Assembly (NCBI GenBank): GCA_963734575.1
Contig: CAVTHT010000007.1
Location: 288,549 to 352,548 of the forward strand
Reading direction: 5' to 3'
DNA: 64,000 nucleotides
Source: an uncultured beta proteobacterium
GTDB lineage: Bacteria > Pseudomonadota > Gammaproteobacteria > Burkholderiales > Casimicrobiaceae
In this document: positions 29,015 through 64,000 of the stretch, piece by piece
Layout: each line of letters opens with the position of its first letter
Position numbering within the stretch: the stretch's first letter is position 1
The notes under the pieces: model-generated
Told to the model about the DNA's origin: nothing
Seen by the model: only the letters and a program-made list of their open reading frames with translations
The model's database searches: none
Program-made: the position numbers and the translations under genes

Positions 29015-29017
29015 GCG

Positions 29018-29327
29018 TCAAATGCGCAGCCTCTCGACGATCTCGCCGCCGACGACGTGGCGATCGATGATCTCGTCGATGTCGCTGCGATCGACGTAGG
29101 TGTACCAGACCGCTTCCGGGTACACGACGAGCACGGGGCCTTCCTCGCAGCGGTCGAGGCACCCGGCGCGGTTCATCCGCACCTTGCCCTTGCCCGACGA
29201 GGCCGAGCGCCTTGATGCGGCCCTTCGCGTACTGGTGCAGCTCGTCGGCGCCATGGTTCGCGCAGCACGCCTCCGGCGCCTCGCGCCGGTTGCAGCAGAA
29301 GAAGACGTGACGCTGGTAGTAGCTCAT
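29018..29327 (-). CDS. thioredoxin-like [2Fe-2S] ferredoxin family protein; one frame switch
   Basis: MSYYQRHVFFCCNRREAPEACCANHGADELHQYAKGRIKALGL, continuing in another frame as GKGKVRMNRAGCLDRCEEGPVLVVYPEAVWYTYVD...IVERLRI*. Confidence 0.6.
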
Positions 29328-29403
29328 GACGGGGCGGAGTGGCGGACGCGCTCCGCCGGAAGGGGATCGCCAGGCGAGCGGCTGACGAACGTTGGATTAT
29401 ATC

Positions 29404-30535: not shown

Positions 30536-30542
30536 GGTCGAC

Positions 30543-31166: not shown

Positions 31167-31291
31167 CATGCGCATCATGATCGCACGGCGTGCGTGCGAT
31201 CGCGGACGAGCGGCCGTTCCAGGCACGTCGACGGGAGCGCAGGCGGGCTCGCTGGGCGCGTCACCTCGGCACCAGCGCGCGCGGCGGCCGC

Positions 31292-33140: not shown

Positions 33141-34050
33141 CACGCTGCGGCCCCCGCGCGGCCGCCGCTGCGCCCGATCCACGCGGCGAGCCCTGCAAGC
33201 GCCAGCGCCGCGATGGTGAGCACGATCGAGAGCACGCTGCCGAACGGCCAGTCGCGCGTCTCGAGGAATTGCTGCTTGATGACGTTGCCGATCAGGCTGT
33301 CGTCGGGTCCGCCGAGGATGTCCGGGATCGCGAAGATGCCGAGCGCCGGGAATGAACACCAGCGCGGCGCCAGCGTACACGCCCGGCAGCGAGAGCGGGA
33401 ACGTGATGCGCCAGAAACGCTGCCAGCCGTTGGCGCCGAGATCCTGCGCCGCATCGAGCAGCGCCTGGTCGTGCTTCTCGAGGTTCGCGTAGAGCGGCAG
33501 CACCATGAACGGCAGGTGCACGTAGACGAGGCAGACCAGCACCGCGAAGGACGAGAAGAGCAGCGACACCGGGCTGGCGCCGACGATCGCCAGCACGCGG
33601 TTCACGGCGCGCGCGAGCGCGCGCCTGCGGACCCAGGATGATCATCCAGGCGTAGATGCGGATCAGGAAGTTGCTCCAGAACGGCAGGATGACGAGCAGC
33701 AGCAGGAGATCGCGGTGCGCGCTTCGGGCTGCGCGCGATCAGCGTGGCCAGCGGGTACGCGAGGGCGAGGCAGGCGAGGGTCGTGATCGCGGCGTACCCG
33801 ACCGACTTCAGGAACACTTCGGCGTAGATCGGGCTCCGGAATGAAGCGCGCGTAGCTCTCGAGGTTCGAGGTCGAGCTTGCCCGGCTTCGTCGACGAGCG
33901 GCGCGAGGCCGCCGAACTCGCCGGGCGAGCGGAACGACGCCAGCACCATGATCAGCGCGGGCAGGGCGAAGAACACGATCAGGTACAGCGAGCGGCGGAC
34001 CGCCCACCAGCCATTTGCCGGTCCGCGCCGCGCGAGTCTGCAGGCTCACC
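33140..34050 (-). CDS. potB: polyamine ABC transporter permease; several frame switches
   Basis: Fragments SPIYAEVFLKSVGYAAITTLACLALAYPLATLIARSPK, IPDILGGPDDSLIGNVIKQQFLETRDWPFGSVLSIVLTI, and DAAQDLGANGWQRFWRITFPLSLPGV across frames. Confidence 0.65.
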
Positions 34051-34062
34051 GCGGAACGACCT

Positions 34063-35150
<1,088 letters not shown>

Positions 35151-47633: not shown

Positions 47634-48662
47634 TCAGGCGGCGCGCGCACCGCCCGACGTGAGCTCGATGGCGAGCGCGAGCGCAGCTTCGAGGCTGCCG
47701 GGATCGGCGGTGCGCGCCTTCTGGGCATCGGCGGCCAGATCGAGCGCGGTGCCGTGGTCCACCGATGTGCGGATGAACGGCAGCCCCAGCGTCACGTTGA
47801 CCCCGCCCCCGAAGCTTGCCGCCTTGAGCGTCGGCAGGCCCTGGTCGTGGAACATGGCGATGATCGCGTCGTAGCCGCGGGCGTGCGCGGGGACGAAGAT
47901 CGTGTCGGCAGGCACGGGCCCGTCGACGTCGATGCCGCGCGCGCGTGCAGCGGCAATCGCCGGCGCGATCACGTCGATCTCCTCGCGCCCCATGTGGCCG
48001 CCTTCGCCGGCGTGGGGATTGAGTCCGCACACCGCGAGCCGCGGATGCGCGATGCCGAAGCGCGCAGCGAGATCGTGCGCGACGATGGCGATGGTTTCCT
48101 CCACGGCCGCGTCCGTGATCGCGGTCGGCACGTCCCTGAGCGGCAGGTGCGTCGTGACCAGCGCGACGCGCAGCGGGTGCGCGGCCTCGCCGCCGACCAG
48201 CAGCATCACCACGCGTGGCGTGTGCGTGCGCTCGGCGAGGAACTCGGTGTGGCCCGAGAAGGGAATGCCCGCGTCGAGCAGCACGCTCTTCTGCACCGGG
48301 GCGGTCACCATCGCCGAGAATGCGCCGGCCGCGCACGCGTCGCAGGCGCGGCTCAGCATGAGCAGCACGCTGTGCGCGTTGGTCGGGTCGGGATGGCCGG
48401 GCCGCACCGGCGCGGCGACCGGCTGGTGCCACACCTCGATTGCGCCGGGCGGGGCGTGGAGCGCGGCGGGATCGTGATCGACGTAGACCGGATGCAGGCC
48501 GATGCGCGCCGCGCGTTCCTCGAGCAGCGGGCGATCGCCGATTACCACGATGCGCGCGGCGCGCGATGCGGCGTCATGGCGGGCGGCGATCATCGCGCAA
48601 AGTTCCGGACCGATGCCGGCCGGCTCGCCGGCGGTCAACGCGATGGTGGGATACGCGCTCAT
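47634..48662 (-). CDS. pdxA: 4-hydroxythreonine-4-phosphate dehydrogenase
   Basis: MSAYPTIALTAGEPAGIGPEL...GHTEFLAE...GLNPHAGEGGHMGREE; intact. Confidence 0.9.
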   Translation of the reverse strand: MSAYPTIALTAGEPAGIGPELCAMIAARHDAASRAARIVVIGDRPLLEERAARIGLHPVYVDHDPAALHAPPGAIEVWHQPVAAPVRPGHPDPTNAHSVLLMLSRACDACAAGAFSAMVTAPVQKSVLLDAGIPFSGHTEFLAERTHTPRVVMLLVGGEAAHPLRVALVTTHLPLRDVPTAITDAAVEETIAIVAHDLAARFGIAHPRLAVCGLNPHAGEGGHMGREEIDVIAPAIAAARARGIDVDGPVPADTIFVPAHARGYDAIIAMFHDQGLPTLKAASFGGGVNVTLGLPFIRTSVDHGTALDLAADAQKARTADPGSLEAALALAIELTSGGARAA

Positions 48663-50891
48663 GAGCGGATGGTGACCTCGCAGGCGTCGCTGTCGCCGAA
48701 CCGCTCGACCTTCACGTCTTCCGTCACGGAGATCCGTGCGTGCGCGCCGTCCATCGCGACCGCCGCCTGCGCGAAGCCATCGAGCGCCTGCGTCGGCCGG
48801 CCGAACAGCCAGAGCTGCGCGAGCGGGCGCGCCGTGTCGATGTCGCCGGTGTGCTGCACCGCGGGTCCCAGCGGCAGCACGTAGCCTTCACGCCCGAAGA
48901 CCGGGAACTGATCGAGCGTCGCGCGGTAGCGCATCACGCGATTGCCGGGCACGCGCTGGCGCGAGTTGAGATCGAACCAGCCGCCCGGCGGCAGCGCGAT
49001 CTCGGCCTCGCCATCGGGCTGCACGATCGGCGCGACGAGGAGCGCATCGCCGCACATGAACTGGGTTTCGCAGCGCCGCGCGAGGGTGCTGCCCGGAAAG
49101 GCGAGCGGCATCGCGCGCATGACCGGCATGCCGGTGCGCGAGGCCTGCTGCAGGACTCGCTCGAGGTACGGCAGCAGGCGGTACCTGAAACGCGATCCAC
49201 TTGCGCGCGATCGCCTCGGCTTGCTCGCCGCCGGCCCACGGCTCGCGCTCCGCCGGCCCGCGCACCACGCAATGCGAGGCGAACAGCGCGGCCTGCAGCC
49301 AGCGCATGCCGAGCTCGGCATCGTGGGGTCCCGCACCATACGTGCCCGGTGCCGCGAAGGCGTGCAGCGGCATGCCGCTCATGCCGAGCGACAGCGCACC
49401 GCGGATCGTCGCGGCGAGCCCCTCCCAGTCGTTCTGCGCGGCGCGGCCCGCGGGCACGGCGGCACGCTGACCCGCGCTCCAGCCGGCACGCGCCACGACG
49501 AGGGGCGGTCCGTCCTGCGGCGCGCGAAAGCGGGCGGCGGCATCGTGCACGCAACGGTTGAACAGCACGGGATAGACGTTGTGCAGGCGCGCGCCGCGCT
49601 CGCCGCCGTGCGCGAACGCATCTTCCGGAACGTGCTCGCCGCCCTCGGTCTGGACGGCATCGACACCCACCGCGAAGAGATCTGCATGGGCATCGCGCCA
49701 CCAGCTCGCCGCCGCGGGGTTGGCGAAATCCACGAGGCCGCAGTCGGGCGGCTGCGCCAGCGCCGACTTGCCGGCCGCCGACGCGTTGCCGAACCATGCG
49801 CCGCTCAGCACGTACGGCCCGCCGTGCGCGGCACGCAGCAGGTAGCCGCGACTCGCGAGCGCCTCGAAGAGCGGCGAATGCACCGACACGTAGGGCGACT
49901 CGCTGACCGCGACGCGAACATCGTGGCGCTTGATGTCGCGCAGTGCTGCGGCGGGCTCGCCGTATCGCGTGGGGTCCCAGTCGAAATCGAAACCGCGTTC
50001 GGTGGTCCACGTCGCAGCCGCATCGAGCGCGATCACGTCGCACGGGATCTTGCGCCGGCGCAGCTGGGCGATGGCCCGCGCCGCATCCTCGGGTGTCGCG
50101 TAGGCGCTGCGCGCGAGCTGCAGCCCCAGGCTCCACAGCGGCACGTCCGGCGCGTGGCCGGTGACCTCGGCGTGGCGCTCGAGGATCGTCGCGGGCGTGT
50201 CGGCGGCGTACAGAAAGAGGTCCAGCGCCTCGTCGTCGACGACGAAGCCGTACGTGCGATGCGACCAGTCCGGATGCCCGACGCCGTGGATCACCGCGCC
50301 GGGCGTGTGCACGAACGCGCCCCACGCCCCCTTGCCACGCCCCGGGCTCCAGGCGAACGGCGTCTCGTGGTGCGCGAGGCCGGCGTTGACGCCCTGCGCG
50401 TCCTGCACCCACGAATGCAGCAGCTGTCCGCGACGATCGAGCGGCCCGTATTTCTCGCCGAGACCATAGACCGGCTCGCCTGCCGCGAGCGCGAAGGCCG
50501 CCATCCACTGGCCACCCTGGCGCACGCGACCGAACGCCGGCAGGCGCGTCGTGCCGTCCGGCAGCTCGTCCTCGATGGAGCCGACGAGCGCGACGCCTTC
50601 GCGCACGAGCCGGAAGGCGAGCGGCGCGCCGCGCAGCTCGAGCGTGGCGTCGCCGCTGCCGAAGCGATAGACGCCGGCTTCCTGCGCGAACGTGCAGGGC
50701 TTTGCGCGCCCCGCGATGAGCCCGTGGTCGGGCCGCGTCTTCGGTCCGATGCGCAGCCGAAATACGCCGGGGCCGAACGACGACACCTCGAGGATGTCGC
50801 CGGTGGACGTTGCGAACGATGCGCCGGCGGACGTCGAGCCGATGCAATGCGGCGCCTCGAGGCGCAGGTACGAGGTGGCGTCGAAAGGCAT
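48659..50891 (-). CDS. glycoside hydrolase family 31 alpha-glucosidase/alpha-xylosidase; one frame switch
   Basis: GEKYGPLDRRGQLLHSWVQDAQG ... VIALDAAATWTTERGFDFDWDPTRY ... C-terminal domain PYLERVLQQASRTGMPVMRAMPLAFPGS. Its stop overlaps the pdxA ATG (ATGA). Confidence 0.8.
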
Positions 50892-50906
50892 CGGCCGGCT
50901 CGCGCG

Positions 50907-51800
50907 TCAGCCGGCGAAGTACGGTTCCGGAAGTCCCGGCACGTCGACGTTCATCGCGAACAATCCGCCCGAGGCGGGAAAGCGCTGCAGCTCGTCGTCG
51001 GACAGCCGCTGGCGCGCCGTGGTGACGTACAGCGTGCGCAGGTCGGCGCCACCGAACGCACACATCGAGGGACAGCTCGCCGGCAGTGCGTAGCGCGCGA
51101 GGAGCTCGCCACGCGGCGAGAACCGCACGACGGCTCCGCCGTGATAGAGCGCGACCCAGTAGCAGCCGTCGCTGTCGACGGCCGCACCATCGGGCCGATC
51201 GCCGGGCGCGGTGAAGCGCGCGAACACGCGGCCGTTGCCGATGTCGCCCGTGCGCGGATCGAAGTCGAACGCGCGCACCGTCTGCGCGGGCGTATCGGCG
51301 TGATACATCGTGCGTCCGTCGGGACTCCATGCGAGGCCGTTGGAGATGGTCAGCTCGCCCACCATGGGCGTGAGCGTGCCGTCCTGCTCGAGGCGCATCA
51401 GCGCGGCCGTCGCGCCGTCGCGCCGCTCGTTCATGTACCCGGGCCAGAAGCGCCCCTGCGGATCGCAGCGGCCGTCGTTGAAGCGATGCGTCGCCGTGTC
51501 GTAGGGCGCGTCGGCGATCCTGCGCAGGGGTTGCCCGGCGCGGTCGAGGCGCCACACGCCGCTGCGCATCGCCGCGATGAAGCCGCCGCTGCGGCACAGC
51601 GCGAAGCAGCCGATCGATTCCGGCAGCTTCATCTTCACGTTGTCCCCACTCCGCGGATCGAACCGATTGAGTGAGGGCTCGTTGATGTCGATCCAGTAGA
51701 GCACCCGCTCGACGAGCGACCATACCGGACCTTCGCCGAGGCTCGCGCGGGCGTCGAGCACGCACGTGAAAGCGGAGGTGGATGGAGACGAATCGTTCAT
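50907..51800 (-). CDS. SMP-30/gluconolactonase/LRE-like lactonase
   Basis: LGEGPVWSLVERVLYWIDI...RFNDGRCDPQGRFWPGYM...ISNGLAWSPDGRTMYHADT...DGAAVDSDGCYWVALYHGGAV. Confidence 0.75.
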   Translation of the reverse strand: MNDSSPSTSAFTCVLDARASLGEGPVWSLVERVLYWIDINEPSLNRFDPRSGDNVKMKLPESIGCFALCRSGGFIAAMRSGVWRLDRAGQPLRRIADAPYDTATHRFNDGRCDPQGRFWPGYMNERRDGATAALMRLEQDGTLTPMVGELTISNGLAWSPDGRTMYHADTPAQTVRAFDFDPRTGDIGNGRVFARFTAPGDRPDGAAVDSDGCYWVALYHGGAVVRFSPRGELLARYALPASCPSMCAFGGADLRTLYVTTARQRLSDDELQRFPASGGLFAMNVDVPGLPEPYFAG

Positions 51801-52726
51801 GCGGCTGCCCGGACGGATATCTCCATCGTACAAGAAAAGGATTCGCCGGCACCCAGCACGCGCGTGCCGGTGTCGCGCTCGCCGCGCTCGGCGCGATTGA
51901 AGGCGTCGGTCATCTGCGTCACCGGCTCGATGGCAAGGAACGTGCCGTGCGGCGGAACGTAGACGACGAAATAGGGACATGCGGTGTCGCCGCGCAGCGT
52001 CGTCACGCGCGCTGCTGCCGGATGACGGAGCTCGGCCGCGCCCTGCCAGCCGGTGTAGACGTTGTCGAGGAAGAGATTGGCGATGCCGCGCGGCGGATCG
52101 AACAGGAACTTGCCGGCGACGGCGGCGTGACGCACGGGCAGGATCGTGTCGTCGGTCTCCCACACGCCTTTCGCACCGAAGCCGAGCGTTGTGTCGGGCG
52201 AGCCGGGGAAGAACGGATGCCAGCCGAGGCCGAACGGGAACGGTCCATCGCCGCGGTTCGTGAGCGTGAGGCGCATGCGCAGCACCGCGTTCGTGTCGTC
52301 GCCACCGAGCTGCAACCACTGCGTCGCGCGGAACGGCCATGGCCATGCGCGTGCATTGGCATCCCCCGTGCCGCTCCTGCGCGGTTCGTGTTCAGAGGCC
52401 AGCAACGCGCTCGTCTCGTCGTGATCGAGCACGTCCCACGGCCGCTGCCAGCCGACGCCATGGATCGCGTGCGGGTGATCGCCGAAGTTGCGGTCGAGCT
52501 GGTGCATCGTGCCGCGGAACGCGAGGCGCCCGCGCTCGATGCGATTCGAGTACGGCACGAGCGGATAGCACGCGTGGCGGCGCACGTCCCCGTCGGCGAT
52601 CGCGTCGGACGGCGTGGCGCGCAGCACCGGTGCGCCCCGCCAGTCGAAGCGCGCGATCGCGCCGCCCGTCGTCGGCGCGAGATCCACGACGGCATCGTCG
52701 TGGCGCAGGGTGAGGAGGGAAGGCAT
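51797..52726 (-). CDS. aldose 1-epimerase family protein
   Basis: YPLVPYSNRI...HAIHGVGWQRPWDVL...GLGWHPFF...; intact. Its stop overlaps the lactonase ATG (ATGA). Confidence 0.7.
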   Translation of the reverse strand: MPSLLTLRHDDAVVDLAPTTGGAIARFDWRGAPVLRATPSDAIADGDVRRHACYPLVPYSNRIERGRLAFRGTMHQLDRNFGDHPHAIHGVGWQRPWDVLDHDETSALLASEHEPRRSGTGDANARAWPWPFRATQWLQLGGDDTNAVLRMRLTLTNRGDGPFPFGLGWHPFFPGSPDTTLGFGAKGVWETDDTILPVRHAAVAGKFLFDPPRGIANLFLDNVYTGWQGAAELRHPAAARVTTLRGDTACPYFVVYVPPHGTFLAIEPVTQMTDAFNRAERGERDTGTRVLGAGESFSCTMEISVRAAA

Positions 52727-52834
52727 GGTCGACGATCGCGGCCAACTGCGGCGCAGGAGATGCGCTCGATTCTACGCGACGGCCCTCGCGCTCGCGCCGG
52801 CACGGTCGTTGCAATCGCGCGCCGCAGCGTGACC

Positions 52835-52840
52835 TATAAT
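52835..52840 (+). promoter_or_regulatory. perfect TATAAT -10 hexamer upstream of azlC; the paired -35 (TTGCAA at 52809) gives a 20-nt spacer, so this is uncertain
   Basis: A perfect AT-rich hexamer in a ~70% GC background, 58 bp upstream of the azlC ATG. Confidence 0.25.
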
Positions 52841-52897
52841 GCGGCTCGACCAGGGAGGCGCCGGCTTCCCTTTTTTGTTGCCCGCGATCACGCTGCC

Positions 52898-53605
52898 ATG
52901 TCACGCGCCTTTTCCGCCAGCGACTTCCGCGAAGGGTTCGTGGAGATGCTGCCCGCGTGCATCGGCCTCATCCCGTTCGGTCTCGTGACGGGTATCGGCG
53001 CTGCGGCGGCCGGTGCAGACTTCTGGGCCGCGCTCGGGATGAGCGCGATCATCTTTTCCGGTGCGGCGCAGGTGCTCGCGGCGCAGCTCTTCGCGAGCGG
53101 TGCGCCGGTCGGCGTCATCATCCTGACGTGTTTCGTGGCCGGCCTGCGCTTCCTGCTCTACAGCGCTGCCATGGCGCCGTACCTGCGGCCGTTGCCCGCG
53201 CGGTGGCAGCAGGGGCTCGCGTTCCTGCTCACCGACCAGGCCTTCGCCGCGTCGATCCGCCGCTTCGACGCGAGCGCCGATCCGCACGCGGGCGCATCGC
53301 ATTTCCTCGGCGGCGGGTCCGCGCTGTGGATCGGCTGGCAGGTGACCAACATCATCGGGTTCTTCGCCGGCGCGTCGATCCCGGCGTCGTGGTCGCTCGA
53401 TTTCGCGGTGCCGCTGTGCTTCCTCGCGCTGGTTGCGCCCGCTTTGCGCAGCTCCGCGCACGTCGCCGCCGCCGTCACCGCGGGCGTGAGCGTGCTGCTG
53501 CTCGGCGGGCTGCCCATGAAGCTCAACTTGATCGCGGCCGGGCTCCTCGGCATCGCCGCGGGCGTGGCCACCGAGTTCGGCCACGCGCGGGCGAAGCGCG
53601 CATGA
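52898..53605 (+). CDS. azlC: branched-chain amino acid exporter component AzlC
   Basis: MSRAFSASDFREGFVEMLPACIGLIPFGLVTGIGAAAAGADFWAALGMSAIIFSGAAQ... Confidence 0.75.
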   Translation: MSRAFSASDFREGFVEMLPACIGLIPFGLVTGIGAAAAGADFWAALGMSAIIFSGAAQVLAAQLFASGAPVGVIILTCFVAGLRFLLYSAAMAPYLRPLPARWQQGLAFLLTDQAFAASIRRFDASADPHAGASHFLGGGSALWIGWQVTNIIGFFAGASIPASWSLDFAVPLCFLALVAPALRSSAHVAAAVTAGVSVLLLGGLPMKLNLIAAGLLGIAAGVATEFGHARAKRA

Positions 53606-53669
53606 GGGCGCCGGGCCGCCCCCAGCCCGAATGCCGGAGCGCGCAGCGCGGGGCACTCCAGTGAGCCCG

Positions 53670-53999
53670 ATGCTGAAGATCTGGGTGGTGATCGTCGTCG
53701 TCGGCGGGCTCAACTACCTTTCGCGCCTGTCGTTCATTGCGCTCTTCTCGCGGCGGAGCATGCCCACCGGCGTGGCGCGGGCGCTCAAGTACGTGCCTGC
53801 TGCGATGCTCACCGCGCTGATCGTCCCGATGATCCTGGCGGCACCTGCGGGCGTGCTGCCGGTCCATCTCAACGCGCGCGTGTGGGCCGCGCTCGTGGCG
53901 GGGGTGGTGGCGTTCCGCACTCGCAGCACGCTCGCGACGCTCGTCACGGGCATGGCGACGCTGTGGATTCTCGAGGCCACGGTCCTGCCCGCGGCCTGA
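53670..53999 (+). CDS. azlD: AzlD-family small membrane protein
   Basis: MLKIWVVIVVVGGLNYLSRLSFIALFSRRSMPTGVARALKYVPAAMLTALIVPMIL. Downstream partner of azlC. Confidence 0.6.
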   Translation: MLKIWVVIVVVGGLNYLSRLSFIALFSRRSMPTGVARALKYVPAAMLTALIVPMILAAPAGVLPVHLNARVWAALVAGVVAFRTRSTLATLVTGMATLWILEATVLPAA

Positions 54000-54047
54000 C
54001 CGGGGCGCTGCCATCGGCTAACATTGCAGTTCTCCCCCGGAGATCCC

Positions 54048-54893
54048 ATGCGCTTCGAAGGCACCGACACGTACGTCGCCACCCCGGACCTGATGCTCGC
54101 GGTCAACGCGGCGATCGCGCTCGAGCGTCCGCTGCTCGTCAAGGGCGAGCCGGGGACCGGCAAGACGATGCTCGCCGAGGAAGTCGCGCGCTCGCTGCAG
54201 CGACCCCTCTACCAGTGGCACGTCAAGTCCACGACCAAGGCGCAGCAGGGCCTGTACGAGTACGACGCCGTGTCGCGGCTGCGCGATTCGCAGCTCGGCG
54301 ATGGCCGCGTGGCCGACATCGCGAACTACATCAAGCGCGGCGTGCTGTGGGAGGCGTTCGAGGCGGAGACCCCGGCCGTCGTGCTGATCGACGAGGTGGA
54401 CAAGGCCGACATCGAGTTTCCGAACGACCTCCTGCGCGAGCTCGACCGCATGGAGTTCTACGTCTACGAGACGCAGCAGACCATCCGGGCGCGGCATCGG
54501 CCCCTCGTCGTCATCACCAGCAACAACGAGAAGGAGCTGCCCGACGCCTTCCTGCGCCGCTGCTTCTTCCATTACATCCGCTTCCCCGATCGCGAGACCA
54601 TGACGCGCATCGTCGACGTGCACTTCCCGGGGCTCAAGAAGGCTCTGCTGCAGGAGGCGCTGGAGGTGTTCTTCAACCTGCGCGACGTGCCGGGACTGAA
54701 GAAGCGGCCGTCGACGTCCGAGCTCCTCGACTGGCTCAAGCTGCTGCTCGCCGAGGACATCCCGCCGGAGGCGCTGCACAGCACCGACCGCAAGGTGCTG
54801 ATCCCGCCGCTGCACGGGGCGCTGCTCAAGAACGAGCAGGACGTGCATCTCTTCGAGCGCGTCGCCTTCATGGCCCGCGCCGGCAGGAGCTGA
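54048..54893 (+). CDS. MoxR-like AAA+ ATPase (AAA_5 / CoxD-NorQ-CbbQ type)
   Basis: LLVKGEPGTGKTMLAEEVA (Walker A), VLIDEVDKAD (Walker B), arginine finger region; intact. Confidence 0.8.
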   Translation: MRFEGTDTYVATPDLMLAVNAAIALERPLLVKGEPGTGKTMLAEEVARSLQRPLYQWHVKSTTKAQQGLYEYDAVSRLRDSQLGDGRVADIANYIKRGVLWEAFEAETPAVVLIDEVDKADIEFPNDLLRELDRMEFYVYETQQTIRARHRPLVVITSNNEKELPDAFLRRCFFHYIRFPDRETMTRIVDVHFPGLKKALLQEALEVFFNLRDVPGLKKRPSTSELLDWLKLLLAEDIPPEALHSTDRKVLIPPLHGALLKNEQDVHLFERVAFMARAGRS

Positions 54894-54903
54894 CGGGCCC
54901 GCC

Positions 54904-55518
54904 GTGGCCTTCGTCGATCCCGTCGTGCTCGCCGGCCGGCGCGTGACGCTGGAGCCGCTCGCGCACGGGCACGAAGCGGCACTGCGTGCGGCCGCGTCCG
55001 ACGGCGCGCTGTGGAACCTCTGGTACACCTCCGTGCCTTCGCCCGAGCGGGTCGGCGCGTACATCGAGACCGCACTCGACATGCGCGATCGCCTCGGCGC
55101 GATGCCGTTCGTGGTGCGCGACAACGCCGAGGACGCGATCGTCGGCACCACGCGCTATTTCAACGTCGAGGCGACGCACCGGCGCCTGGAGATCGGCCAC
55201 ACGTGGTACGCGAAGCGCGTGCAGCGCACCGCCGTCAACACGGAGTGCAAGCTGCTGCTGCTGGGTCACGCCTTCGAGCAGCTCGGCTGCATCGCCGTCG
55301 AGTTCCGCACCAGCGCGTTCAACTTCGCCTCGCGCGAGGCGATCGCACGCCTCGGCGCGAAACAGGACGGCATCCTGCGCAATCACATGCTGCTGCCCGA
55401 TGGCACGCGGCGCGACACCGTGGTGTTCAGCATCCTCGACAACGAGTGGCCGGCGGTGCGCAGGCACCTCGCCTGGCGCCTCGAGCGCCACGGCGGCGCC
55501 GGGGTCGGCCGCGAATAG
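54904..55518 (+). CDS. GNAT-family N-acetyltransferase (RimJ/RimL-like)
   Basis: VTLEPLAHGHEAALRAAASDGALWNLWY...RRLEIGHTWYAKRVQRTAVNTECKLLLLGHAFEQLGCIAVEFRTSAFNFASREAIARLG. Confidence 0.75.
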   Translation: MAFVDPVVLAGRRVTLEPLAHGHEAALRAAASDGALWNLWYTSVPSPERVGAYIETALDMRDRLGAMPFVVRDNAEDAIVGTTRYFNVEATHRRLEIGHTWYAKRVQRTAVNTECKLLLLGHAFEQLGCIAVEFRTSAFNFASREAIARLGAKQDGILRNHMLLPDGTRRDTVVFSILDNEWPAVRRHLAWRLERHGGAGVGRE

Positions 55519-55526
55519 AGGCGGCC

Positions 55527-56702
55527 ATGCTGGTCGACTTCTTCCTGCATCTCAAGTCCGCGCGCCTGCCGGTCTCCACGCGCGAATTCCTAACTCTGCT
55601 CGAGGCGCTGGACGAGCGGGTGGTGTCACTCTCGCTCGACGACTTCTACGTGCTCGCGCGCACGTGCCTCGTGAAGGACGAGGCGCATTTCGACCGCTTC
55701 GATCTCGCGTTCGGCTCGTACTTCAAGGGCATCAACGCGATCTTCGACATTCGCGCCGAGATCCCGGACGCGTGGCTGCGCAAGGAGTTCGAGCGCCATC
55801 TCAGCGCCGAGGACAAGGCGAGGATCGAGGCGCTCGGGGGTCTCGACAAGCTCATGGAGACGTTCAAGCAGCGCCTCGCCGAGCAGAAGGAGCGCCATGC
55901 CGGCGGCTCCAAGTGGATCGGCACGGGTGGGACGAGTCCCTTCGGCGCGTACGGCTACAACCCGGAGGGCATCCGCATCGGCCAGGTGGGCAGCGGCAAC
56001 CGCAGCGCGGTCAAGGTGTGGGACGAGCGCAGCTTCCGCAATCTCGACGGCGAGGTCGAGCTCAACACGCGCAACCTCAAGATCGCGCTGCGCAAGCTGC
56101 GGCGCTTCGCGCGCGAGGGCGTGCCCGAGGAGCTCGATCTCGAGGGCACGATCGAAGGCACCGCGAAGAACGCGGGGTGGCTCGATCTCCACCTCATGCC
56201 CGAGCGGCGCAACCGCATCAAGGTGCTGCTCTTCCTCGACGTCGGCGGCTCGATGGATCCGCACGTGCGTGCCTGCGAGGAGCTCTTCTCGGCGGCGAAG
56301 AGCGAGTTCCGGCACCTCGAGTACTTCTACTTCCACAACTGCGTCTACGACCACGTGTGGCGCGACAACGGCCGGCGCCGCAACGAGCGGAGGTCGACCC
56401 TGGAGATCCTGCGCACCTACGGCCCGGACTGGAAGCTCATCTTCGTCGGTGACGCCGCGATGAGCCCGTACGAGCTCATGGAGGTCGGCGGCAGCGTCGA
56501 GTACAGCAACGACGAGCCCGGGGTCGTGTGGCTCACGCGCCTCGTCGAGCATTTCCGGCGCGCCATCTGGTGGAATCCCGAGCCGCCACGCGCGTGGGAG
56601 TACACGCGCTCGACCCAGATCATCCAGCAGGTGCTGGGACCGCGCATGTTCCCGCTGACCCTCGACGGGGTGGGGCAGGGCATCGACGCCCTGCGACACT
56701 GA
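55527..56702 (+). CDS. VWA-domain protein, CoxE-like; partner of the MoxR ATPase
   Basis: MLVDFFLHLKSARLPVSTREFLTLLEAL...VLLFLDVGGSMDPH (MIDAS DxSxS)... Confidence 0.8.
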   Translation: MLVDFFLHLKSARLPVSTREFLTLLEALDERVVSLSLDDFYVLARTCLVKDEAHFDRFDLAFGSYFKGINAIFDIRAEIPDAWLRKEFERHLSAEDKARIEALGGLDKLMETFKQRLAEQKERHAGGSKWIGTGGTSPFGAYGYNPEGIRIGQVGSGNRSAVKVWDERSFRNLDGEVELNTRNLKIALRKLRRFAREGVPEELDLEGTIEGTAKNAGWLDLHLMPERRNRIKVLLFLDVGGSMDPHVRACEELFSAAKSEFRHLEYFYFHNCVYDHVWRDNGRRRNERRSTLEILRTYGPDWKLIFVGDAAMSPYELMEVGGSVEYSNDEPGVVWLTRLVEHFRRAIWWNPEPPRAWEYTRSTQIIQQVLGPRMFPLTLDGVGQGIDALRH

Positions 56703-56703
56703 G

Positions 56704-57576
56704 GTGACGCCGGCGCCGGAGCTCCAGGCGGCCGTGCTGGCGGCCCTCGGGGCGGGCGGCGCACCGGCGAGCTGGCGGGTCGCTGCGAACAGCAGCTTCA
56801 ACGCCACTTGGCGCCTCGACTGCGGCGCCGGAAGCTTCTTCGTGAAGTGCGGCCCGCCGGAGCGGCACGCCATGCTCGATGGCGAAGCGGCGGGACTTGC
56901 CGCGCTGGCAGCCACGCGTGCGGTGCGCGTGCCGGCGGTGGCCGCGCTCGGTGGCACGGAGCGCCACGCGTTCCTCGCGCTGGAGTGGCTGAATCTGGTC
57001 CGCGGTGGGTGCGACGCCGCGCTCGGCCGGGCGCTGGCTGCGCTGCATCGCTGCACGTCCGAGCGCTTCGGCTGGACGCGCGACAACACGATCGGCAGCA
57101 CGCCGCAGGAGAACGCGTGGTCGGCAACGTGGATGGAGTTCTTCCGCGATCGCCGTCTTGCACCGCAGTTCCGGCGCGCGCGGGACCGCGGCGTCCGCGA
57201 GCTTACCGACGCGGGTGAGCGCTTGCTCGCGCGGGTGCCCGCACTGCTCGCCGGGCATCAACCCCGACCGTCGCTGTTGCACGGCGACCTGTGGTCCGGC
57301 AATGCCGGGCGGCTGCAGGACGGCACCCCCGTGGTGTTCGACCCCGCGGTGTATTTCGGCGATCGCGAAGCCGATCTCGCCATGACCGAGCTCTTCGGCG
57401 GCTTCGGGCCCGACTTCCATGCGGCGTATCGGGAAGCCTGGCCGCTCGACCCGGGCTACGCCACGCGGCGCACGCTCTACAACCTCTACCACGTGCTCAA
57501 CCACTGCAACCTCTTCGGCGGCGGCTACGCGCAACAGGCGCTCGCCATGATCGCCGAGCTGCGCGCGGCCGCGTGA
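56704..57576 (+). CDS. fructosamine/ketosamine-3-kinase family protein
   Basis: SFFVKCGPPERHAMLDGEAAGLAALA...LLHGDLWSGNAG...FDPAVYFGDREADLAMTELFGGF. GTG start 2 nt after the VWA stop. Confidence 0.8.
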   Translation: MTPAPELQAAVLAALGAGGAPASWRVAANSSFNATWRLDCGAGSFFVKCGPPERHAMLDGEAAGLAALAATRAVRVPAVAALGGTERHAFLALEWLNLVRGGCDAALGRALAALHRCTSERFGWTRDNTIGSTPQENAWSATWMEFFRDRRLAPQFRRARDRGVRELTDAGERLLARVPALLAGHQPRPSLLHGDLWSGNAGRLQDGTPVVFDPAVYFGDREADLAMTELFGGFGPDFHAAYREAWPLDPGYATRRTLYNLYHVLNHCNLFGGGYAQQALAMIAELRAAA

Positions 57577-57760
57577 CGGCGCCGCCGGCCCTTCTTCCCG
57601 CGAGGAACCAGCATGGCCGGCGTGATTCACGCGCGGTTCGCTGCATCCAGTCTTGCCTGCGCTACGTACATCGGACACGGCCAGGCGTCGCCAATCGCCG
57701 CCCGGCCGCCGGCGCCAGAACATGGCGTCGCCCGCGAACGTTCGGAGAGGAGATCCAATC

Positions 57761-59294
57761 ATGTCCGCTGCTGCCACCCTGCCCGCCTTCCGGCGCGCGC
57801 TCGCCCCGTTGCTACTCGCGAGCGCCATCGCCGCGGCGTGGGCCCCGCCCACGCACGCCTCGAGCCATCGCGAGGCGCCCTTCATCGCCGGCCTGCCCAA
57901 GGTCGACGCGAGCGACTTCTACATGTTCCGCAGCTACGAGCCGGGCCGCGAGGACTACGTGGTCCTGGTCGCCAACTACATCCCGCTGCAGGATGCCTAC
58001 GGCGGTCCCAACTTCTTCAAGCTGGACGCGAATGCGCTGTACGAGATCCACGTCGTCAACGACGGCGGCGCGCGCGAGAACCTCACGTTCCAGTTCCGGT
58101 TCCAGAACGTGAACGACGACAACCAGCTCACGGTCGGCGGCAAGCAGGTCTCGATCCCGCTGGTGCAGAACGGCGTCAAGGACGTGAACCAGCCCAACGA
58201 CCCGGCGCTCAACGTGCACGAGACGTACACCGTCGACGTCGTCCGCGGCCCGCGCCGTACCGGCAACCGCGCAGCCGGTGACGAACCTCAACACCGGCGG
58301 CACGAGCTTCGACAAGCCGGTCGACAACATCGGCATGAAGACCATCTCGGACTACGTCCGCTACGGCAATCGCCACGTGTGGGATGTCGCGATTCCCGGA
58401 TGCACCGGCGGCGGCCGGGTGTTCGTCGGCCAGCGCAAGGATCCGTTCGTCGTGAACCTCGGCGAGACCTTCGACCTCGTCAACATCAAGTATCCCGCCG
58501 TCGAGCTCAACCCGGCGGCCGAATTCGCGACGGTCGACACGCTGTCCGACAAGAACGTCACCTCGATCATCACTGGAGGTGCCGATCGCGTGCCTCACCG
58601 AAGGCAAGGGCACGGTCATCGGCGCGTGGACGACGCGCGAGCCTTCCCGCAAGCCAGGTGCTCGCGGCGACGGGCGGCAGCGGCCTCGATCCGACGACGC
58701 AAAGCGGCGAGTACGTGCAGGTCTCGCGCCTCGGCATGCCGCTGGTGAACGAGGTCGTCATCGGGCTCAAGGACAAGAACCGCTTCAACGCGAGCGAGCC
58801 CAAGGACGACGCGCAGTTCGCCGACTACGTGACCAACCCGACGCTGCCGGCGCTGATCGAGATCCTGTTCGGCAAGGCCGGCGTGAAAGCGCCGACCAAC
58901 TTCCCGCGCACCGACCTCGTGGCGGCCTTCCTCACCGGCGTGCCGGGCCTCAACCAGCCCGCGAGCGTCACGGCCTCCGAGATGCTGCGTCTCAACACGG
59001 CCATCGCACCGACGCCCGAAGGGCTCGCAGAAGCGCCTCGGCGTGCTCGCCGGCGACAACGCGGGATTCCCGAACGGGCGCCGGCCCGGTGACGACGTCG
59101 TCGACATCGAGCTGCGCGTGGCGATGGGCGTGCTGTGCACGCTGTCGCTCGGCGGCTGCACGCCGGCCGATGCGCCGGCTGGGACGCTGCACTACACGGA
59201 CGGCGCCTACATCACGGACGCGTACTTCTCGGCGGACTTTCCGTTCCTGCGCGCGCCGCATCCCGGGATCGCCGAACGCCGGACAACCCGTTGA
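57761..59294 (+). CDS. secreted DUF4331-family protein; several frame switches
   Basis: RBS ggagaggag then ATG. Signal peptide, then SSHREAPFIAGLPKVDASDFYMFRSY...HVVNDGG, ...LGMPLVNEVVIGLKDKNRFN..., and C-terminal GDNAGFPNGRRPGDDVVDIELRV across frames. Confidence 0.65.
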
Positions 59295-59379
59295 AGGCGA
59301 AGCAGCGCTGACGTAGCGCGAGCGGTGCCGCGCCTCCCGGTGCGGCACCGTCCTTCCTGCATCCGCACGCGAGGTCGCG

Positions 59380-60580
59380 ATGCTCCGTTACCGCTCGTTC
59401 CCCAGGGCTGCACGCCTTGCCGTCGCAGCCCTGCTCTTCTCTCCGTCGTCGCGACCGTAGCGGCGGCGCCGTACACGCCGGCGTCCGACGACGTGGTGCT
59501 GGAGCGCCTGCCCGAGAAGCTCGATCCGTCGCTCGCGGAACTGAAGCGCCTGCGCACGGCGCTCGTGCGGCGACCAGACGACACCACTCTCGCCGCACGC
59601 CTCGCGCGGCGCGCGATAGAGGCATCGCGCGAGACCGGTGATCCGCGCTTCCTCGGCCAGGCGCAGGCGGCACTGGCGCCATGGTGGAACGCGCCGGACG
59701 CGCCGGTGGACATCGTGGTGCTGCGCGCGACGATCCGCCAGAGCCTGCACGACTTCCCCGCAGCGCTCGCGCGATCTCGATCGCGTGCTGGCGATCGCAC
59801 CCGCGCACGGCGCAGGCGCGGCTCACCCGCGCCACCGATGCTCACCGTGGTCGGCCGCTACGACGAGGCGACGCGCGACTGCGACGCGCTCGCGCGCCTC
59901 GCCGTCGAGCTCGTGACTCGCGCGTGCCGTGCGGCACCCGCCAGCCTCGACGGACGCGCGGCGGAAGCGTACGCAAGCCTGGCGAGCGCCCTGCAGCGCA
60001 CCCGGCGCGACCACGCCGGAGCTGGCCGCGTGGGGCCATACCCTCGCCGCGGAGATCGCCGCACGCCGCGGCGACGCGACCGCCGCGGAGGCGCACTTCC
60101 GGCAGGCACTCGCCGCCGATCCGCGCGATGCCTACCTGCGCGGCGCGTACGCCGATTTCCTGCTCGATCGCGGCCGGCCGCGCGAAGCCGCTGCACTCGT
60201 CGCGGGCGAGCTGCGCAACGACGGTCTCCTGCTGCGCCTCGCCCTCGCGGAAACGCGCTTCACCGATGCGACAGCGGAGAGCGGCGCGCTGCCGCCGACA
60301 TCGCGAGGACCTCGCTGCCCGCTTCGATGCGTCGCGGCGCGCGGCGATATCGTGCACCGGCGCGAGGAGGCGCGCTATGCGCTGCTGCTCGAAGGCGATG
60401 CCGCCGCGCGCTCTGGCGCTGGCCCGCGCCAACTGGGCGGTGCAGCGCGGAGCCGGCGGACCTGCGCATCCTCGTCGAGGCCGCACGCGCGCGACGAACG
60501 AGCGACGCGCCTCGACGTCGTGCGCCGCTGGCGGCACGACGCACCGACTGCGACGACGTCGCGGTGGTCGCCGCACTGGG
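59380..60580 (+). CDS. TPR-repeat protein with signal peptide; frame switches, 3' end not resolved
   Basis: MLRYRSFPRAARLAVAALLFS..., then TPR-like repeats (GDPRFLGQAQAALAPWWNAPD..., AEAHFRQALAADPRDAYLRGAYADFLLDRGRPREAAALV). Confidence 0.5.
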
Positions 60581-60591
60581 AGAGCGCGCGC

Positions 60592-61754
60592 ATGAAGCGC
60601 ATCGATGCGCTGCTCGCCGTGCTCGCTGCTGGCGTGCCACGTTCGCGACCGGCGGCGCTCGCGCACAAGCCGAGCGACAGCTATCTCACGCTGAAGCGCG
60701 ACGGCGCGGCGTGCAGGGCCGCTGGGACATCGCGCTGCGCGACCTCGACGCCGCGCATCGGCCTCGACGCCAACGGCGACGGCGAGATCACCTGGGGCGA
60801 GCTGCGCGCGCGCGCGCGCGGCGATCGCCGCGTACGCCCTGTCGCGCCTGGCGCTGCGCTCCGGCGGCGAGCCGTGCGCGCTGCCACGTCGCGCAGCTGC
60901 GTGGATCACCACACCGACGGCGCCTACGCGGTGCTCGAGCTCGTCGGCGACTGCCCGCAGCGGCCCGCACGCTCGACAGTCGAGCTATCGGCCTGCTGTT
61001 CGACATCGACCCGCAGCATCGCGGACTGCTGCAGTTCGTGGAGCGCGGGCGGCACGCACCAGCGTGGTCTTCGCCGGCGGACCGCGCCGCGACAGGTCGT
61101 CGGCGGCGAGCCGGCGGCGCGCTGCGCAGTTCCGCCACCTACGTGCGCGAAGGCGTGTGGCACATCTGGCTCGGCGTTCGACCACATCCTGTTCCTGCTG
61201 TCGCTGCTGCTGCCCGCGGTGCTCGTGCGCCGCGACGCGGCGCTGGCAGCCGGCGGCGTCGTTCCGTGCCGCGTTCGTCGACGTGCGAAGGTCGTCACCG
61301 CGTTCACGCTCGCGCACTCGATCACGCTGTCGCTCGCGGCGCTCGGCGTCGTTGCGCTGCCGTCGCGCTGGGTGGAGTCGGCGATCGCGCTCTCGGTGGT
61401 GCTCGCCGCGCTCAACAACCTGCTTCCCGCTCGTGCGCCAAGCGACGCTGGATCGCCGCATTCGCGTTCGGCCTCGTGCACGGCTTCGGCTTCGCGGGCG
61501 CGCTGCGCGGATCTCGGCCTGCCGTCGGGCTCGCTCGCGCTTTCGCTCGCCGGCTTCAACCTCGGCGTCGAGCTCGGCCAGCTCGCGATCGTCGCGGCGT
61601 TCCTGCCGCTCGGCGTTCGCGTTGCGCGCGACGTCGCGCCTACCGCCGCGTCGCGCTTGCCGGCGGCTCCGCGGTCATCGCCGCGGTCGCGGCGGTGTGG
61701 CTCGTCGAGCGCGCGTTCGACGTGCCGGTGTTCGCCGCGTTCGCCGCGTCCTGA
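60592..61754 (+). CDS. HupE/UreJ_2-family putative metal (Ni/Co) transporter with an N-terminal periplasmic domain; frame switches
   Basis: RBS gggagag then ATG. MKRIDALLAVLAAG...AHKPSDSYLTLK..., then TM core HILFLLSLLLPAVLV, KVVTAFTLAHSITLSLAALGVVALP, FAFGLVHGFGFAGAL, and LSLAGFNLGVELGQLAIVAAFLPL. Confidence 0.65.
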
Positions 61755-61758
61755 GCGC

Positions 61759-62279
61759 TACAGGAGCGGTGCCCGCGCTCGGATCGGCGGGAAGCTCCTC
61801 CGGCACGTCCTGCCAGGGCATGACGTGGATCCCGCTCGCGAGCAGCGATACGCCGACGGGCTCACCCTTGGCGAGCCGGTTGCGCATCGCGACGTGCATC
61901 GTGAGCGTCGTGTGCAATGCCATGTCGGGGCGGCCGTTCACGTGGATGCTCAGGTTGGCCTGCGCGCCCAGCGGGATGAATTCGGCGATGACGCCCTGCA
62001 CCGGGTTCTCGTGCTCGCCGCGCGAGGGCCGGTCGCGCCGATGCAGGATCACCGCGTCGGCGGGAATCGTCCACGCCACCTGCGTTCCGGGCTCGAAGCC
62101 CGCGCGTGCCGCGCCTCGAGCTGCACGCCCTGCCAGTCGAGCACCGTCATCGTGTCGCCCGCGGGCTGCGCGGCGACGCGCGCGCTGAACACGTTCTTGA
62201 TGTCGACGAGACGCGCGACGAGCACGTTCGCCGGGGCGAGTCGTGCAGGCACGGTCCTTGCGCGCCTTGCCCGCCTCAT
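61759..62279 (-). CDS. tandem TOBE (Mop-like, molybdate/oxyanion-binding OB-fold) module. It is either a separate ~140-aa di-Mop protein or the C-terminal extension of the upstream MVP-like ORF. One 1-nt indel lies between the two TOBE domains.
   Basis: TOBE-1: ANVLVARLVDIKNVFSARVAAQPAGDTMTVLDWQGVQLEA...GFEPGTQVAWTIPADAVILH (compare ModC NVLPGTL...LRLGDQTLWV...LPPGSRLRVRIAARDVSLA). TOBE-2: NPVQGVIAEFIPLGAQANLSIHVNGRPDMALHTTLTMHVAMRNRLAKGEPVGVSLLASGIHV (compare ModE SARNQLPGII...). Confidence 0.5.
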
Positions 62280-63820
62280 CCACGCCGAAGATGGCGCGGC
62301 GGATGAGCACGCTGGCGTTCTTGTGGAACGTCTCGAAGTCGTTCTCCGCCGCCACCTGGCGGATGCGCGAGGCGAGGTTCTCGCACACGTACCCGATGAA
62401 GTCGTTCACCCGGAAGATGGCCTTGTCCTTCTCCGAGTCCCCCTCCACGTCGAACTGCCACTTGTACGAGAGCTTGATGCGCAGCCGGGCGTGATCCCGC
62501 GTGGCCACCTCGAACAGATCCGTGGCGAAGTCCGGCCCCAGGCGCAGCATGAGCACCTTGAGCTGCCTCGGCCGCTTGGGCGTGCTGCCGGACAGGTCCA
62601 GCACCGTCACGTCCTCGTACGGGCGCAGCATCACCTTCGCCGGGCCGAACTCGACTCGCGCGTGGTTGGTCTCGAAGTCGTTGATCAGCACCGCCGTGTT
62701 GTCCTCGATGCGCAGCACGATGGCTCGCGTGCGGTCGATCCGCTCCGGAGACGGCGCGGCCGAGCGCGGCGCCTTGGGGTCCTTGCCATCCACGGCGGCC
62801 AGCTGCGGCGCGGGAGGAGGCGGCGCCAGCCCCAGCAGCGCCTCGGCCTCCGCGGAGAGCCGCTTCTCGTGCAGCTCCTGGTGGGCCTCGGGCATGAACT
62901 GGCACGGGCCCTGGACCAGCGACACCTTGCCGGAGCGCAGATCCCTCACGTAGAGGCCCTCGCCCTGCCCCAGCGACAGCGCGACGATCTCCTTGTGGAT
63001 CAGCACCCGCTCGTTGGGCACGTACGTCCGAGGCCCGCGCACGATCCACGTATCACCCGCCTTGCGCGCCCGCGACTCGCCGCCCTCGTCCGGCTCGGAG
63101 AAGTCATCGAGCGCCTGGAGCTTCAGCCCCTGCATCTCGGAGAGCACGTGCTTGCGGCGGACGTCGCCCTCGAGCGCCTCGCCCGGCTCGAGGAAGAAGA
63201 CGTCCGGCCCGGAGATGATCTTGCGGCGGCCCTCCTGGATCTTCCCGGTGGTGCGGTCCACGGGGTTGAGCACCACGCAGTACTCGGTCTCCTTGAGCAT
63301 GCGAGCCTTCTCGGCGGAGACGACGACCACCGCGGCATTGGGCACGTAGCGGCCGGGGCCACGGACCAGCCACTCGTCACCGGCCTCGCGGCGACGCGGC
63401 CCGCCGGGGGCCCGCTCGTCCATGAAGGCGTTGAGCGCCTGCAGCCGCAGCGCGTCGTAGACTCCGAGCACGTGCTCGGGGGTGATCTCTCCCTCCATCT
63501 CTTCGCCGGGGTACAGCGGGAAGACCTGGGGACCGACGCGCACCTCGCGATCTCCCACCGCGATGCGCGCCTGGCCGAACTCGTCCAGCGCGACCTTGCC
63601 GCCCTCGCGCACCACGGGGTTGCGCACCACGCACCAGTTGCCGGTGCCCAGCTCGATCATCCGGCTCTTGGTGACGAGCGTGAGGTGGGCCTCCAGGGTG
63701 AGGACCTTGGGGCCGATCTCCACCAGCACGACGCCGCGGTTCGCGTCCTCGATGTAGGCGTACTCGCGGTTCTTCAGGGAGATGCGCTGGATGGCTTCGG
63801 TTGGAGTTCGGGATCGCCAT
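62280..63820 (-). CDS. major vault protein (MVP) homolog: N-terminal MVP/vault repeats plus MVP shoulder (SPFH-like) domain. One frame switch at codon ~8. There is no in-frame stop before the TOBE module.
   Basis: RBS GAGGAGG-N5-ATG at 63820. Segment-by-segment matches to human MVP: FPLYPGEEMEGEITP vs FPLYPGEVLEKDITP; AGDEWLVRGPGRYVPN vs AGDEWLFEGPGTYIPR; YCVVLNPVD...FFLEPGEALEG...VLSEMQGLKLQAL vs YCVILDPVG...FFLQPGEQLEQ...VLSEQQGLLLRAL; GDTWIVRGPRTYVPN vs GDHWLIRGPLEYVPS; EGLYVRDLRSGKV vs EGIYVQDVKTGKV; TPKRPRQLKVLMLRLGPDFATDLFEVATRDHARLRIKLSYKWQFDV vs [85 protein letters not shown] vs [39 protein letters not shown]. Confidence 0.8.
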
Positions 63821-64000
63821 GAGTTCCTCCTCGGGTTCGCGGCAAGGGACTGCCAGCCGCGTGCCGCCCAGAGCCCAGAGCGGCGCCCGTTTTCCAGCAC
63901 CAAAATGGCACGCCTCCGCTCCAATCCGGCCCCGAGGCCGTGGTAGCTTCCGGCGCATGCCCGACGTCAGCTCGCGAAAGTTCGTGCAGATCTTCCAGCT

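Follow-up and report, generated by a model that had tools for sequence, protein, structure and literature searches.

The 64,000-nt stretch analysed here (hereafter the window), which covers positions 288,549 to 352,548 of contig CAVTHT010000007.1, carries close to its right-hand end a long open reading frame (ORF) on the minus strand that encodes a major vault protein (MVP) homologue. This ORF spans a join of DNA from two phyla. Judged by its genes, the DNA below position 62251 is the chromosome of a Casimicrobiaceae-like betaproteobacterium, whereas the MVP block on the other side of the join comes from a Hyalangium-like gene (Archangiaceae, Myxococcota) of an unsequenced myxobacterium. The gene as assembled is doubly broken, by a frameshift at its 5' end and by truncation at its 3' end, and we consider an inter-genome chimera produced in the assembly or the library to be the probable origin of the join.

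Pfam analysis of the minus-strand ORF gave matches to five families, all of them above the curated cut-offs: MVP_shoulder (3.4e-36), Vault_3 (1.7e-20), Vault_4 (8.2e-07) and, in two stretches each, Vault_2 (2.8e-33) and Vault (4.2e-30). When the 519-residue MVP-like part was compared with a protein database, the MVPs of vertebrates and protists proved to be 37-43% identical to it, at E values of about 1e-100 to 1e-112 (1e-105 to 1e-112 for the vertebrate ones). A preliminary description, made from the letters and the ORF translations only, had named this ORF an MVP homologue and had proposed a search with the Vault and MVP_shoulder profiles; the identification was confirmed by the significant hits to both profiles, by the five vault and shoulder matches taken together and by the ~40% identity to vertebrate MVPs. 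It had also described an alignment running from the N-terminus through the shoulder domain, which held for the repeats and for most of the shoulder but not for its end, since the window copy matches the MVP_shoulder profile from position 1 to position 97 only, out of 118; the next signal in the ORF is a weak TOBE_2 match. The window copy therefore contains the array of vault repeats (Vault, Vault_2, Vault_3 and Vault_4), and a complete shoulder, the cap-helix and the C-terminal cap-ring region are absent from it. DNA repeats were also observed inside the MVP block (63238-63279 with 63592-63633, and 63004-63235 with 63322-63525), and these reflect the tandem vault repeats with their conserved 'CVV.NPV' strand.

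The relatives of this block are myxobacterial. Apart from P0001, which is the public database entry for the fused ORF discussed below, about 50 database proteins of 750-766 aa were 67-93% identical across the whole query. The closest of them showed 85-93% amino acid identity, and those with an organism name were all from Myxococcaceae/Archangiaceae (Vitiosangium, Hyalangium, Archangium, Corallococcus and Melittangium). When genomes were scanned for MVP genes, taking one genome per species, 23 loci were found, all myxobacterial, among them cultured Hyalangium versicolor and several complete Corallococcus chromosomes. At the nucleotide level (blastn), 21 myxobacterial loci spanned the MVP block with 83-90.5% identity, over 62252-63799/63810 only, and the identity to the MVP genes of Hyalangium, Archangium and Vitiosangium (Myxococcota) was 88-90%. 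All the full-length matches to myxobacterial loci ended at one base, 62251-62252. The phylogeny that had been proposed in the preliminary description nested the block among Hyalangium sequences; in this neighbour-joining tree the window sequence was sister to H. versicolor, with a bootstrap value of 83/100. The bacterial, non-eukaryotic origin of the homologue was thus upheld, with myxobacterial proteins as nearest relatives (85-93% amino acid identity) and eukaryotic ones at 43% or less.

Synonymous codon usage was scored with one model trained on myxobacterial flanking genes and another trained on the window's own genes. The MVP block gave a log-likelihood ratio of +20.9 in favour of the myxobacterial model, and the window host genes, which formed part of the host training set, gave values of -12 to -22. 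The ratio of nonsynonymous to synonymous substitution rates (dN/dS) between the block and its relatives was 0.09-0.15, compared with 0.10-0.21 among bona fide myxobacterial species, a like degree of purifying selection, and the 515 codons of the block contained no indel or stop in comparison with two myxobacterial loci (L001 and L004). This indicates that the MVP fragment evolved as a working gene until the join and is not a decaying relic. The ~70% GC content and the GC bias at third codon positions (GC3) that the ORF shares with its neighbours had been taken as a bacterial hallmark. The values are indeed alike, but they do not discriminate, as the donor group has the same ones (67-70% GC for its loci, GC3 of 0.86-0.95 for its MVP genes). 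The 10-kb flanks of the 23 myxobacterial loci showed no other blastn match to the window, except for ~70% matches to pilT paralogues, and neither the native neighbourhood of the myxobacterial MVP gene (ruvC-ruvA / ruvB) nor any other myxobacterial flank was found in the window outside 62252-~63950.

The rest of the window contains genes of a proteobacterial chromosome, namely accC, a histidine kinase gene, surA, rlmL, ABC transporter genes, pilT/pilU and yggS, together with genes for a GH31 glycosidase, an AAA ATPase, a GNAT protein, fructosamine kinase, a DUF4331 protein, a TPR protein and HupE_UreJ_2. The AccC protein is 94% identical to proteins from metagenome-assembled genomes that are named Casimicrobiaceae bacterium, and the other named matches were to Betaproteobacteria and Burkholderiales. 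Synteny with a 246-kb sister contig from ENA/NCBI (L024) was seen in two stretches of the window, 47715-57529 with 73-81% nucleotide identity and 61794-62234 with 77.9%, the latter corresponding to 3036-3477 of that contig; homology halts at 62234. The second stretch lies within the remnant of a modC-type gene, of which the C-terminal ~150 residues are left. This remnant has an internal frameshift near 62098/62099, seen as a change of phase, and the peptide reconstructed across this one frameshift shared 70% identity with P0121, a protein encoded by the sister contig, and ~50% with proteins that bear the name 'molybdate transport system ATP-binding protein'. The sister contig has modA-modB-modC (modA being of the SBP_bac_11 type). 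In the window, the corresponding place is occupied by the MVP fragment, and nothing is left of modA, of modB or of the part of modC that encodes the ABC ATPase domain. It follows that two statements of the preliminary description have to be revised. The ORF is not directly contiguous with the HupE/UreJ gene, because the ~0.5-kb 3' remnant of modC (61784-62251) stands in between, and the bacterial chromosome in which the gene lies is foreign to it, its neighbours being Casimicrobiaceae-like and the MVP piece Hyalangium-like, joined at a blunt break.

Some further features of this neighbourhood were recorded. A cassette of three genes on the plus strand (DUF4331 - TPR - HupE_UreJ_2, window 57653-61754, ~4.1 kb) is an insertion relative to the sister contig, in which the fructosamine kinase gene directly abuts modC. 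There, modC is split as well (L024 2254-3509), and P0121 has only 197 aa and begins after the Walker motifs, so frameshift errors like those of the window seem to be present in the sister assembly too. The ABC ATPase encoded at 34-35 kb of the window, which cross-matches the sister contig, was considered as the lost half of modC and rejected, as it is an ABC ATPase in its own right, next to permease-like ORFs. From their translations, this ATPase and its permease-like neighbours were read as PotA/PotB/PotC-like.

The homology to MVP ends with ...AAGGACCG (62252), and modC-type sequence follows directly, with zero bases shared at the break. The break lies within the shoulder domain of MVP, which has lost its last 21 profile positions and everything after them, and between the ATPase and TOBE domains of the host modC, which has lost its ATPase domain. 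A repeat scan around the junction revealed chance-level GC-rich repeats only and no flanking repeats. No tRNA was found in the window, no Rfam family in 55-64 kb, and no integrase, transposase or insertion sequence near the junction. An 11-nt sequence common to the native MVP gene and modC, TCGACATCAAG, was examined as a crossover point and discarded because it is ~50 nt away from the break. Neither GC content nor GC skew showed a step at 62250, since donor and host both have ~70% GC. The features around the junction are listed in Table 1.

Table 1. Features at the right-hand end of the window (positions of the window; the minus strand is read from high to low numbers).
Feature	Position	Strand	Basis
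ORF as assembled, 749 codons	61675..63924	-	P0001 (742 aa) is read from an in-frame GTG 7 codons inside
3' remnant of host modC-type ABC ATPase gene (linker and TOBE domain)	61784..62251	-	peptide identity, synteny, TOBE_2
Blunt breakpoint between myxobacterial-type and host-type DNA	62251..62252	.	alignments to L001, L004 and L005 (MVP) and to L024 (modC)
MVP-homologous coding block, 515 codons: 7 vault repeat modules and shoulder positions 1-97 of 118	62252..63798	-	Pfam, blastn
Frameshift site, one base extra or two missing compared with all relatives	63799..63801	-	alignment
GAGGAGG ribosome-binding site (63832-63826) and ATG start (63820-63818)	63818..63832	-	sequence, alignment
Sigma-54-type -24/-12 promoter-like element GGCACGCGGCTGGCA (GGCACG-N4-TGGCA)	63851..63865	-	conserved motif
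Upstream conserved blocks TGGAGC / CCA / TGG	63900..63954	-	alignment A1, 7 myxobacterial loci, invariant columns

In the ORF as assembled, a spurious N-terminal extension precedes the MVP fragment, which is followed by ~49 aa of modC read out of frame and then by the TOBE domain with a tail. P0001 starts at an upstream in-frame GTG, so that its reading passes through the promoter region, and the frame of the TOBE domain is regained only via the second frameshift, near 62098 in the modC remnant. Read-through across the join is to be expected at ~70% GC, where an accidental long ORF is the normal case; on the antisense strand, this region has one of 1297 codons. The fused ORF is an accidental read-through, and there is no gene product to interpret. 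P0001 forms a singleton cluster, from one contig of 352,548 bp, among ~15 billion proteins in a database of 5.8 billion clusters. As this entry (NCBI and ENA) equals the fused ORF, the junction is already present in the public assembly. Neither a 36-mer across the junction nor a 32-mer peculiar to this MVP allele was found in JGI metagenome contigs, which is weak evidence.

At the 5' end, the ATG at 63820 corresponds in position to the GTG start of the myxobacterial relatives in the alignment. At ~63799 the window reads AACTCCAAC--CGAAGCC where the relatives have AACAACAGCAGCGAAGCC. As a result, this ATG lies off the MVP frame by +1, and 'MAIPNSN' is split from 'EAIQRISLKN...' after codon 7. 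The GAGGAGG ribosome-binding site does stand 5 nt before the ATG, as had been described; the start codon it would serve is out of frame with the MVP coding block. In 22 of the 23 myxobacterial loci, a sigma-54-type motif, GGCA[CT]G-N4-T[CGT]GC[AT], was present at the equivalent site, ~50-60 nt upstream of the start of MVP. This pattern had 24 matches in 844 kb of myxobacterial loci (both strands), and it is therefore almost unique to the site upstream of MVP, which suggests that the myxobacterial MVP genes may be controlled by RpoN and an enhancer-binding protein. Seven myxobacterial loci share TGGAGC ... CCA ... TGG blocks 40-90 nt upstream of the sigma-54-like element, possibly the site of an upstream activator or enhancer-binding protein. 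The conserved blocks reach ~63954 in the window, so that myxobacterial-type DNA extends essentially to its end.

One important question is how the two kinds of DNA came to be joined. We propose that the segment from 62252 to at least ~63950 is the promoter region and the first 522 codons of an MVP-family gene from a Hyalangium-like myxobacterium, and that it was joined bluntly, without homology, to a Casimicrobiaceae-like chromosome at 62251/62252 by a chimera between genomes during long-read metagenome sequencing or assembly, for example through a chimeric read that extended the contig. In its true owner, the intact gene would encode a protein of ~755-765 aa with 7 repeats, shoulder, cap-helix and C-terminal cap region, and, to judge from the conserved motif, it would be transcribed from the conserved sigma-54-type promoter. 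The zero decay of the MVP fragment means that the join is either extremely recent or artificial. A chimera is favoured because there is neither decay nor an integration signature, because an operon that is intact in the sister genome is destroyed, because the assembly is rich in errors and because the junction has been sighted a single time. With regard to the assembly, 62 same-strand changes of coding phase were counted in the window, clustered at 8.9-15.4, 28.4-35 and 57.8-59.3 kb; this number is an upper bound on frameshifts, because ordinary gene boundaries on the same strand were counted too. In the affected stretches (8961-15429, 28391-35018 and 57778-59260) some changes are only 100-300 nt apart, and elsewhere the sequence is clean for up to 4.8 kb. 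The genes affected include DUF4331, the Pot-like system (of spermidine/putrescine type, as read from translations) and genes upstream of surA. All this points to a noisy, unevenly polished assembly, and the frameshift pattern together with the 'contig_NNNNN' names of the sister contigs suggests that it is a long-read metagenome assembly.

Several points weigh against a chimera. It was inferred from the assembled sequence up to window position 64000. Real illegitimate recombination would likewise leave a blunt, homology-free junction. The MVP block is in one clean frame and the nearby host genes have many frameshifts, of which ~3 would be expected locally per 1.5 kb; this difference is compatible with the unlike coverage of the two parts of a chimera, but it is not statistically decisive. 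Both partners have ~70% GC, and hence composition gives no signal of a break. The main competitor of a chimera, a real junction, supposes that a Casimicrobiaceae bacterium recently took up myxobacterial DNA by illegitimate recombination, with modABC destroyed and a dead MVP fragment left behind. The junction is part of a public assembly (P0001 equals the fused ORF), illegitimate recombination is typically blunt too, and both myxobacteria and Casimicrobiaceae-like bacteria occur in records of metagenome-assembled genomes (MAGs) of soil type. However, the event would have to be very recent, as the 515 codons lack stops and indels and have the dN/dS of functional orthologues; a signature of a mobile element, integrase, tRNA or repeat is lacking; the event would inactivate a transporter operon of which the sister genome has an intact version; the case is a singleton whose junction 36-mer is absent from JGI metagenomes; and the assembly is visibly error-prone. 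We thus regard a real junction as unlikely, although it deserves to be kept in mind. That the Casimicrobiaceae-like betaproteobacterium captured the promoter and the repeat-barrel part of a myxobacterial MVP gene, in a very recent transfer between phyla, appears similarly unlikely.

Two other explanations are effectively excluded, and neither approaches a real junction in probability. A genuine MVP-TOBE fusion protein, in which a barrel wall of repeats with a ligand-binding TOBE domain would form a cap-less vault-like assembly, has in its favour the one unbroken ORF of 749 codons carrying both Pfam signals. Nevertheless, the linker is ~49 residues of out-of-frame modC, only a second frameshift brings TOBE into frame, the conserved start codon lies in another frame and the shoulder domain is cut in the middle of its fold. 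In addition, long accidental ORFs are usual at 70% GC (as the antisense ORF of 1297 codons illustrates), and no second example exists in the database of 5.8 billion clusters, so that a functional fusion is very improbable. The preliminary description had raised the possibility that a piece of eukaryotic MVP was joined to the bacterial contig, and MVP is indeed best known from eukaryotes. The foreign segment that it envisaged is essentially there, but it is myxobacterial: identities to eukaryotes reach 43% at most, against 93% (amino acids) and 90% (nucleotides) to Hyalangium versicolor, Vitiosangium and Corallococcus; the block has no introns; its ribosome-binding site and sigma-54-type promoter are conserved with myxobacterial genomes; and the gene stands between ruvA and ruvB in Melittangium and Vitiosangium. 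Eukaryotic contamination is consequently the least probable of the explanations.

Unlike the window copy, the myxobacterial homologues are intact proteins of 750-766 aa, with 7 repeats, a full shoulder, the cap-helix and a C-terminal cap region. In P0005 (Vitiosangium, 761 aa), which is 92% identical to the window copy, the MVP_shoulder match covers positions 1-118, and the window copy breaks off at what corresponds to residue ~523 of P0005, short of the final beta strands of this domain. Relatives of the P0005 type aligned with residues 12-172 and 216-859 of the 861 residues of rat MVP (E 1e-141). The gap in this alignment indicates that about two of the nine repeats are absent from the myxobacterial MVPs; rat residues ~173-283 are without a counterpart, and these would correspond to R4-R5 by the repeat boundaries of Tanaka 2009. 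In the AlphaFold2 model of P0005 (mean pLDDT 76), seven beta-repeat modules are followed by an alpha/beta shoulder (417-542), by a cap helix (545-698), which aligned to the cap-helix region of the rat protein, and by short C-terminal helices. A Foldseek search with this model retrieved rabbit, human and rat vault chains (E 1e-50 to 1e-40) and then SPFH cage proteins. Presumably, by analogy with eukaryotic MVP, the intact protein would oligomerise side by side into a vault-like shell.

These results bear on the suggestion, made in the preliminary description, that the protein is a shorter form with fewer repeats. The lower number of repeats (7 instead of the 9 of animal MVP) is real and family-wide, but the shortness is due to truncation, because the intact homologues have 750-766 aa with a full shoulder and cap-helix. 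Likewise, the lack of cap-helix and cap-ring regions is true of the truncated copy only and is not the native form, since the intact relatives reach residue 859 of 861 of the rat protein, and the idea that the protein may form something other than a closed vault was an artefact of the same truncation, the intact relatives carrying a long cap helix. According to PMC3762200, which cites van Zon 2002, MVP molecules need the cap-helix coiled coil to associate with each other and to assemble into a vault. As it is absent here, even a translated fragment would be unable to assemble.

The MVP gene of Melittangium boletus (L025, CP185340.1) and that of Vitiosangium (L026, PZOX01000005.1) belong to the core chromosome and are found there in the interval that separates ruvC-ruvA from ruvB. 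This yebC-ruvC-ruvA ... ruvB neighbourhood also contains variable small genes, among them a dksA/traR-type zinc-finger gene, a DUF7660 gene and an M10 peptidase gene. No NCBIfam model matched P0005 or the window ORF, which probably explains the 'hypothetical protein' label in NCBI/PGAP records; the JGI label is 'major vault protein'.

If a capture by the betaproteobacterium were true, it would be a snapshot of an MVP gene on its way from one bacterium to another, the donor perhaps being a predatory myxobacterium and the recipient an organism nearby. Truncated and frameshifted as it is, the piece would probably be non-functional in that case too. The case calls for caution, as what looked like a striking find proved to be a truncated gene from a myxobacterial family that is already known, located at a probable chimera in a noisy MAG, and the fused pseudo-protein P0001 is already carried by a public database. 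The leads for testing bacterial vaults are the 7-repeat architecture with a full cap-helix, the ruvA/ruvB position and the conserved sigma-54-type promoter, and they concern the intact genes of cultured Hyalangium, Corallococcus and Melittangium, not the window copy.

Bacterial MVPs have been described before. Daly et al. (2013) reported Corallococcus coralloides H8MNI3 and homologues from Plesiocystis, Microscilla, Saprospira, Flexibacter and others, and modelled them as vault-competent (PMC3762200). The MVPs of Myxococcales, Cytophagales and Oscillatoriales were treated in a 2019 preprint (bioRxiv 10.1101/872010), which stated that bacterial MVPs were without prior in silico or in vivo investigation, and those of C. 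coralloides and Melittangium boletus were presented with AlphaFold models in a 2023 preprint (bioRxiv 10.1101/2023.11.10.566534). In these three reports the bacterial proteins were analysed in silico only, and the myxobacterial MVP is experimentally unexplored in them. The phrase "very sparsely documented" of the preliminary description does not fit a family whose homologues have been described since 2013.

Compared with the Myxococcales MVPs, the window copy shows 85-93% amino acid and 83-90.5% nucleotide identity over the fragment, the same order of Pfam matches, the same start position and the sigma-54-like element. It differs from them in stopping at residue ~523 of ~760, in having a 1-nt frameshift after codon 7 and in adjoining betaproteobacterial genes, whereas the native copy lies in ruvA...ruvB. 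The eukaryotic MVPs (rat, human and rabbit; PDB 4V60, 4HL8, 9BW5 and 9Z4W) have repeats, shoulder, cap helix and C-terminal helices in common with the myxobacterial relatives, but the identity is ~40% and they contain 9 repeat modules against 7 in the myxobacterial MVPs. Formation of the hollow barrel particle of two 39-mer halves, vault RNA and the partners PARP4 and TEP1 are not known from any bacterium. A more distant likeness, of the shoulder and coiled coil of P0005, is to the SPFH/band-7 proteins (HflK/C, prohibitin, flotillin and stomatin; Foldseek E 1e-7 to 1e-4), a link also made in PMC3762200 and 10.1101/872010. These proteins lack vault repeats and are 10-20% identical to the P0005 model, compared with 30-33% for the better-matching MVP chains. 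On the host side, 61784-62251 resembles ModC (70% identity to P0121, synteny with modC of the sister contig), but in the window only the frameshifted TOBE end is left, without the ABC ATPase domain, modA and modB. In comparison with these systems, the window contributes no protein of a new kind, only a fragment of one more orthologue of the myxobacterial MVP family, in a foreign and probably artefactual context.

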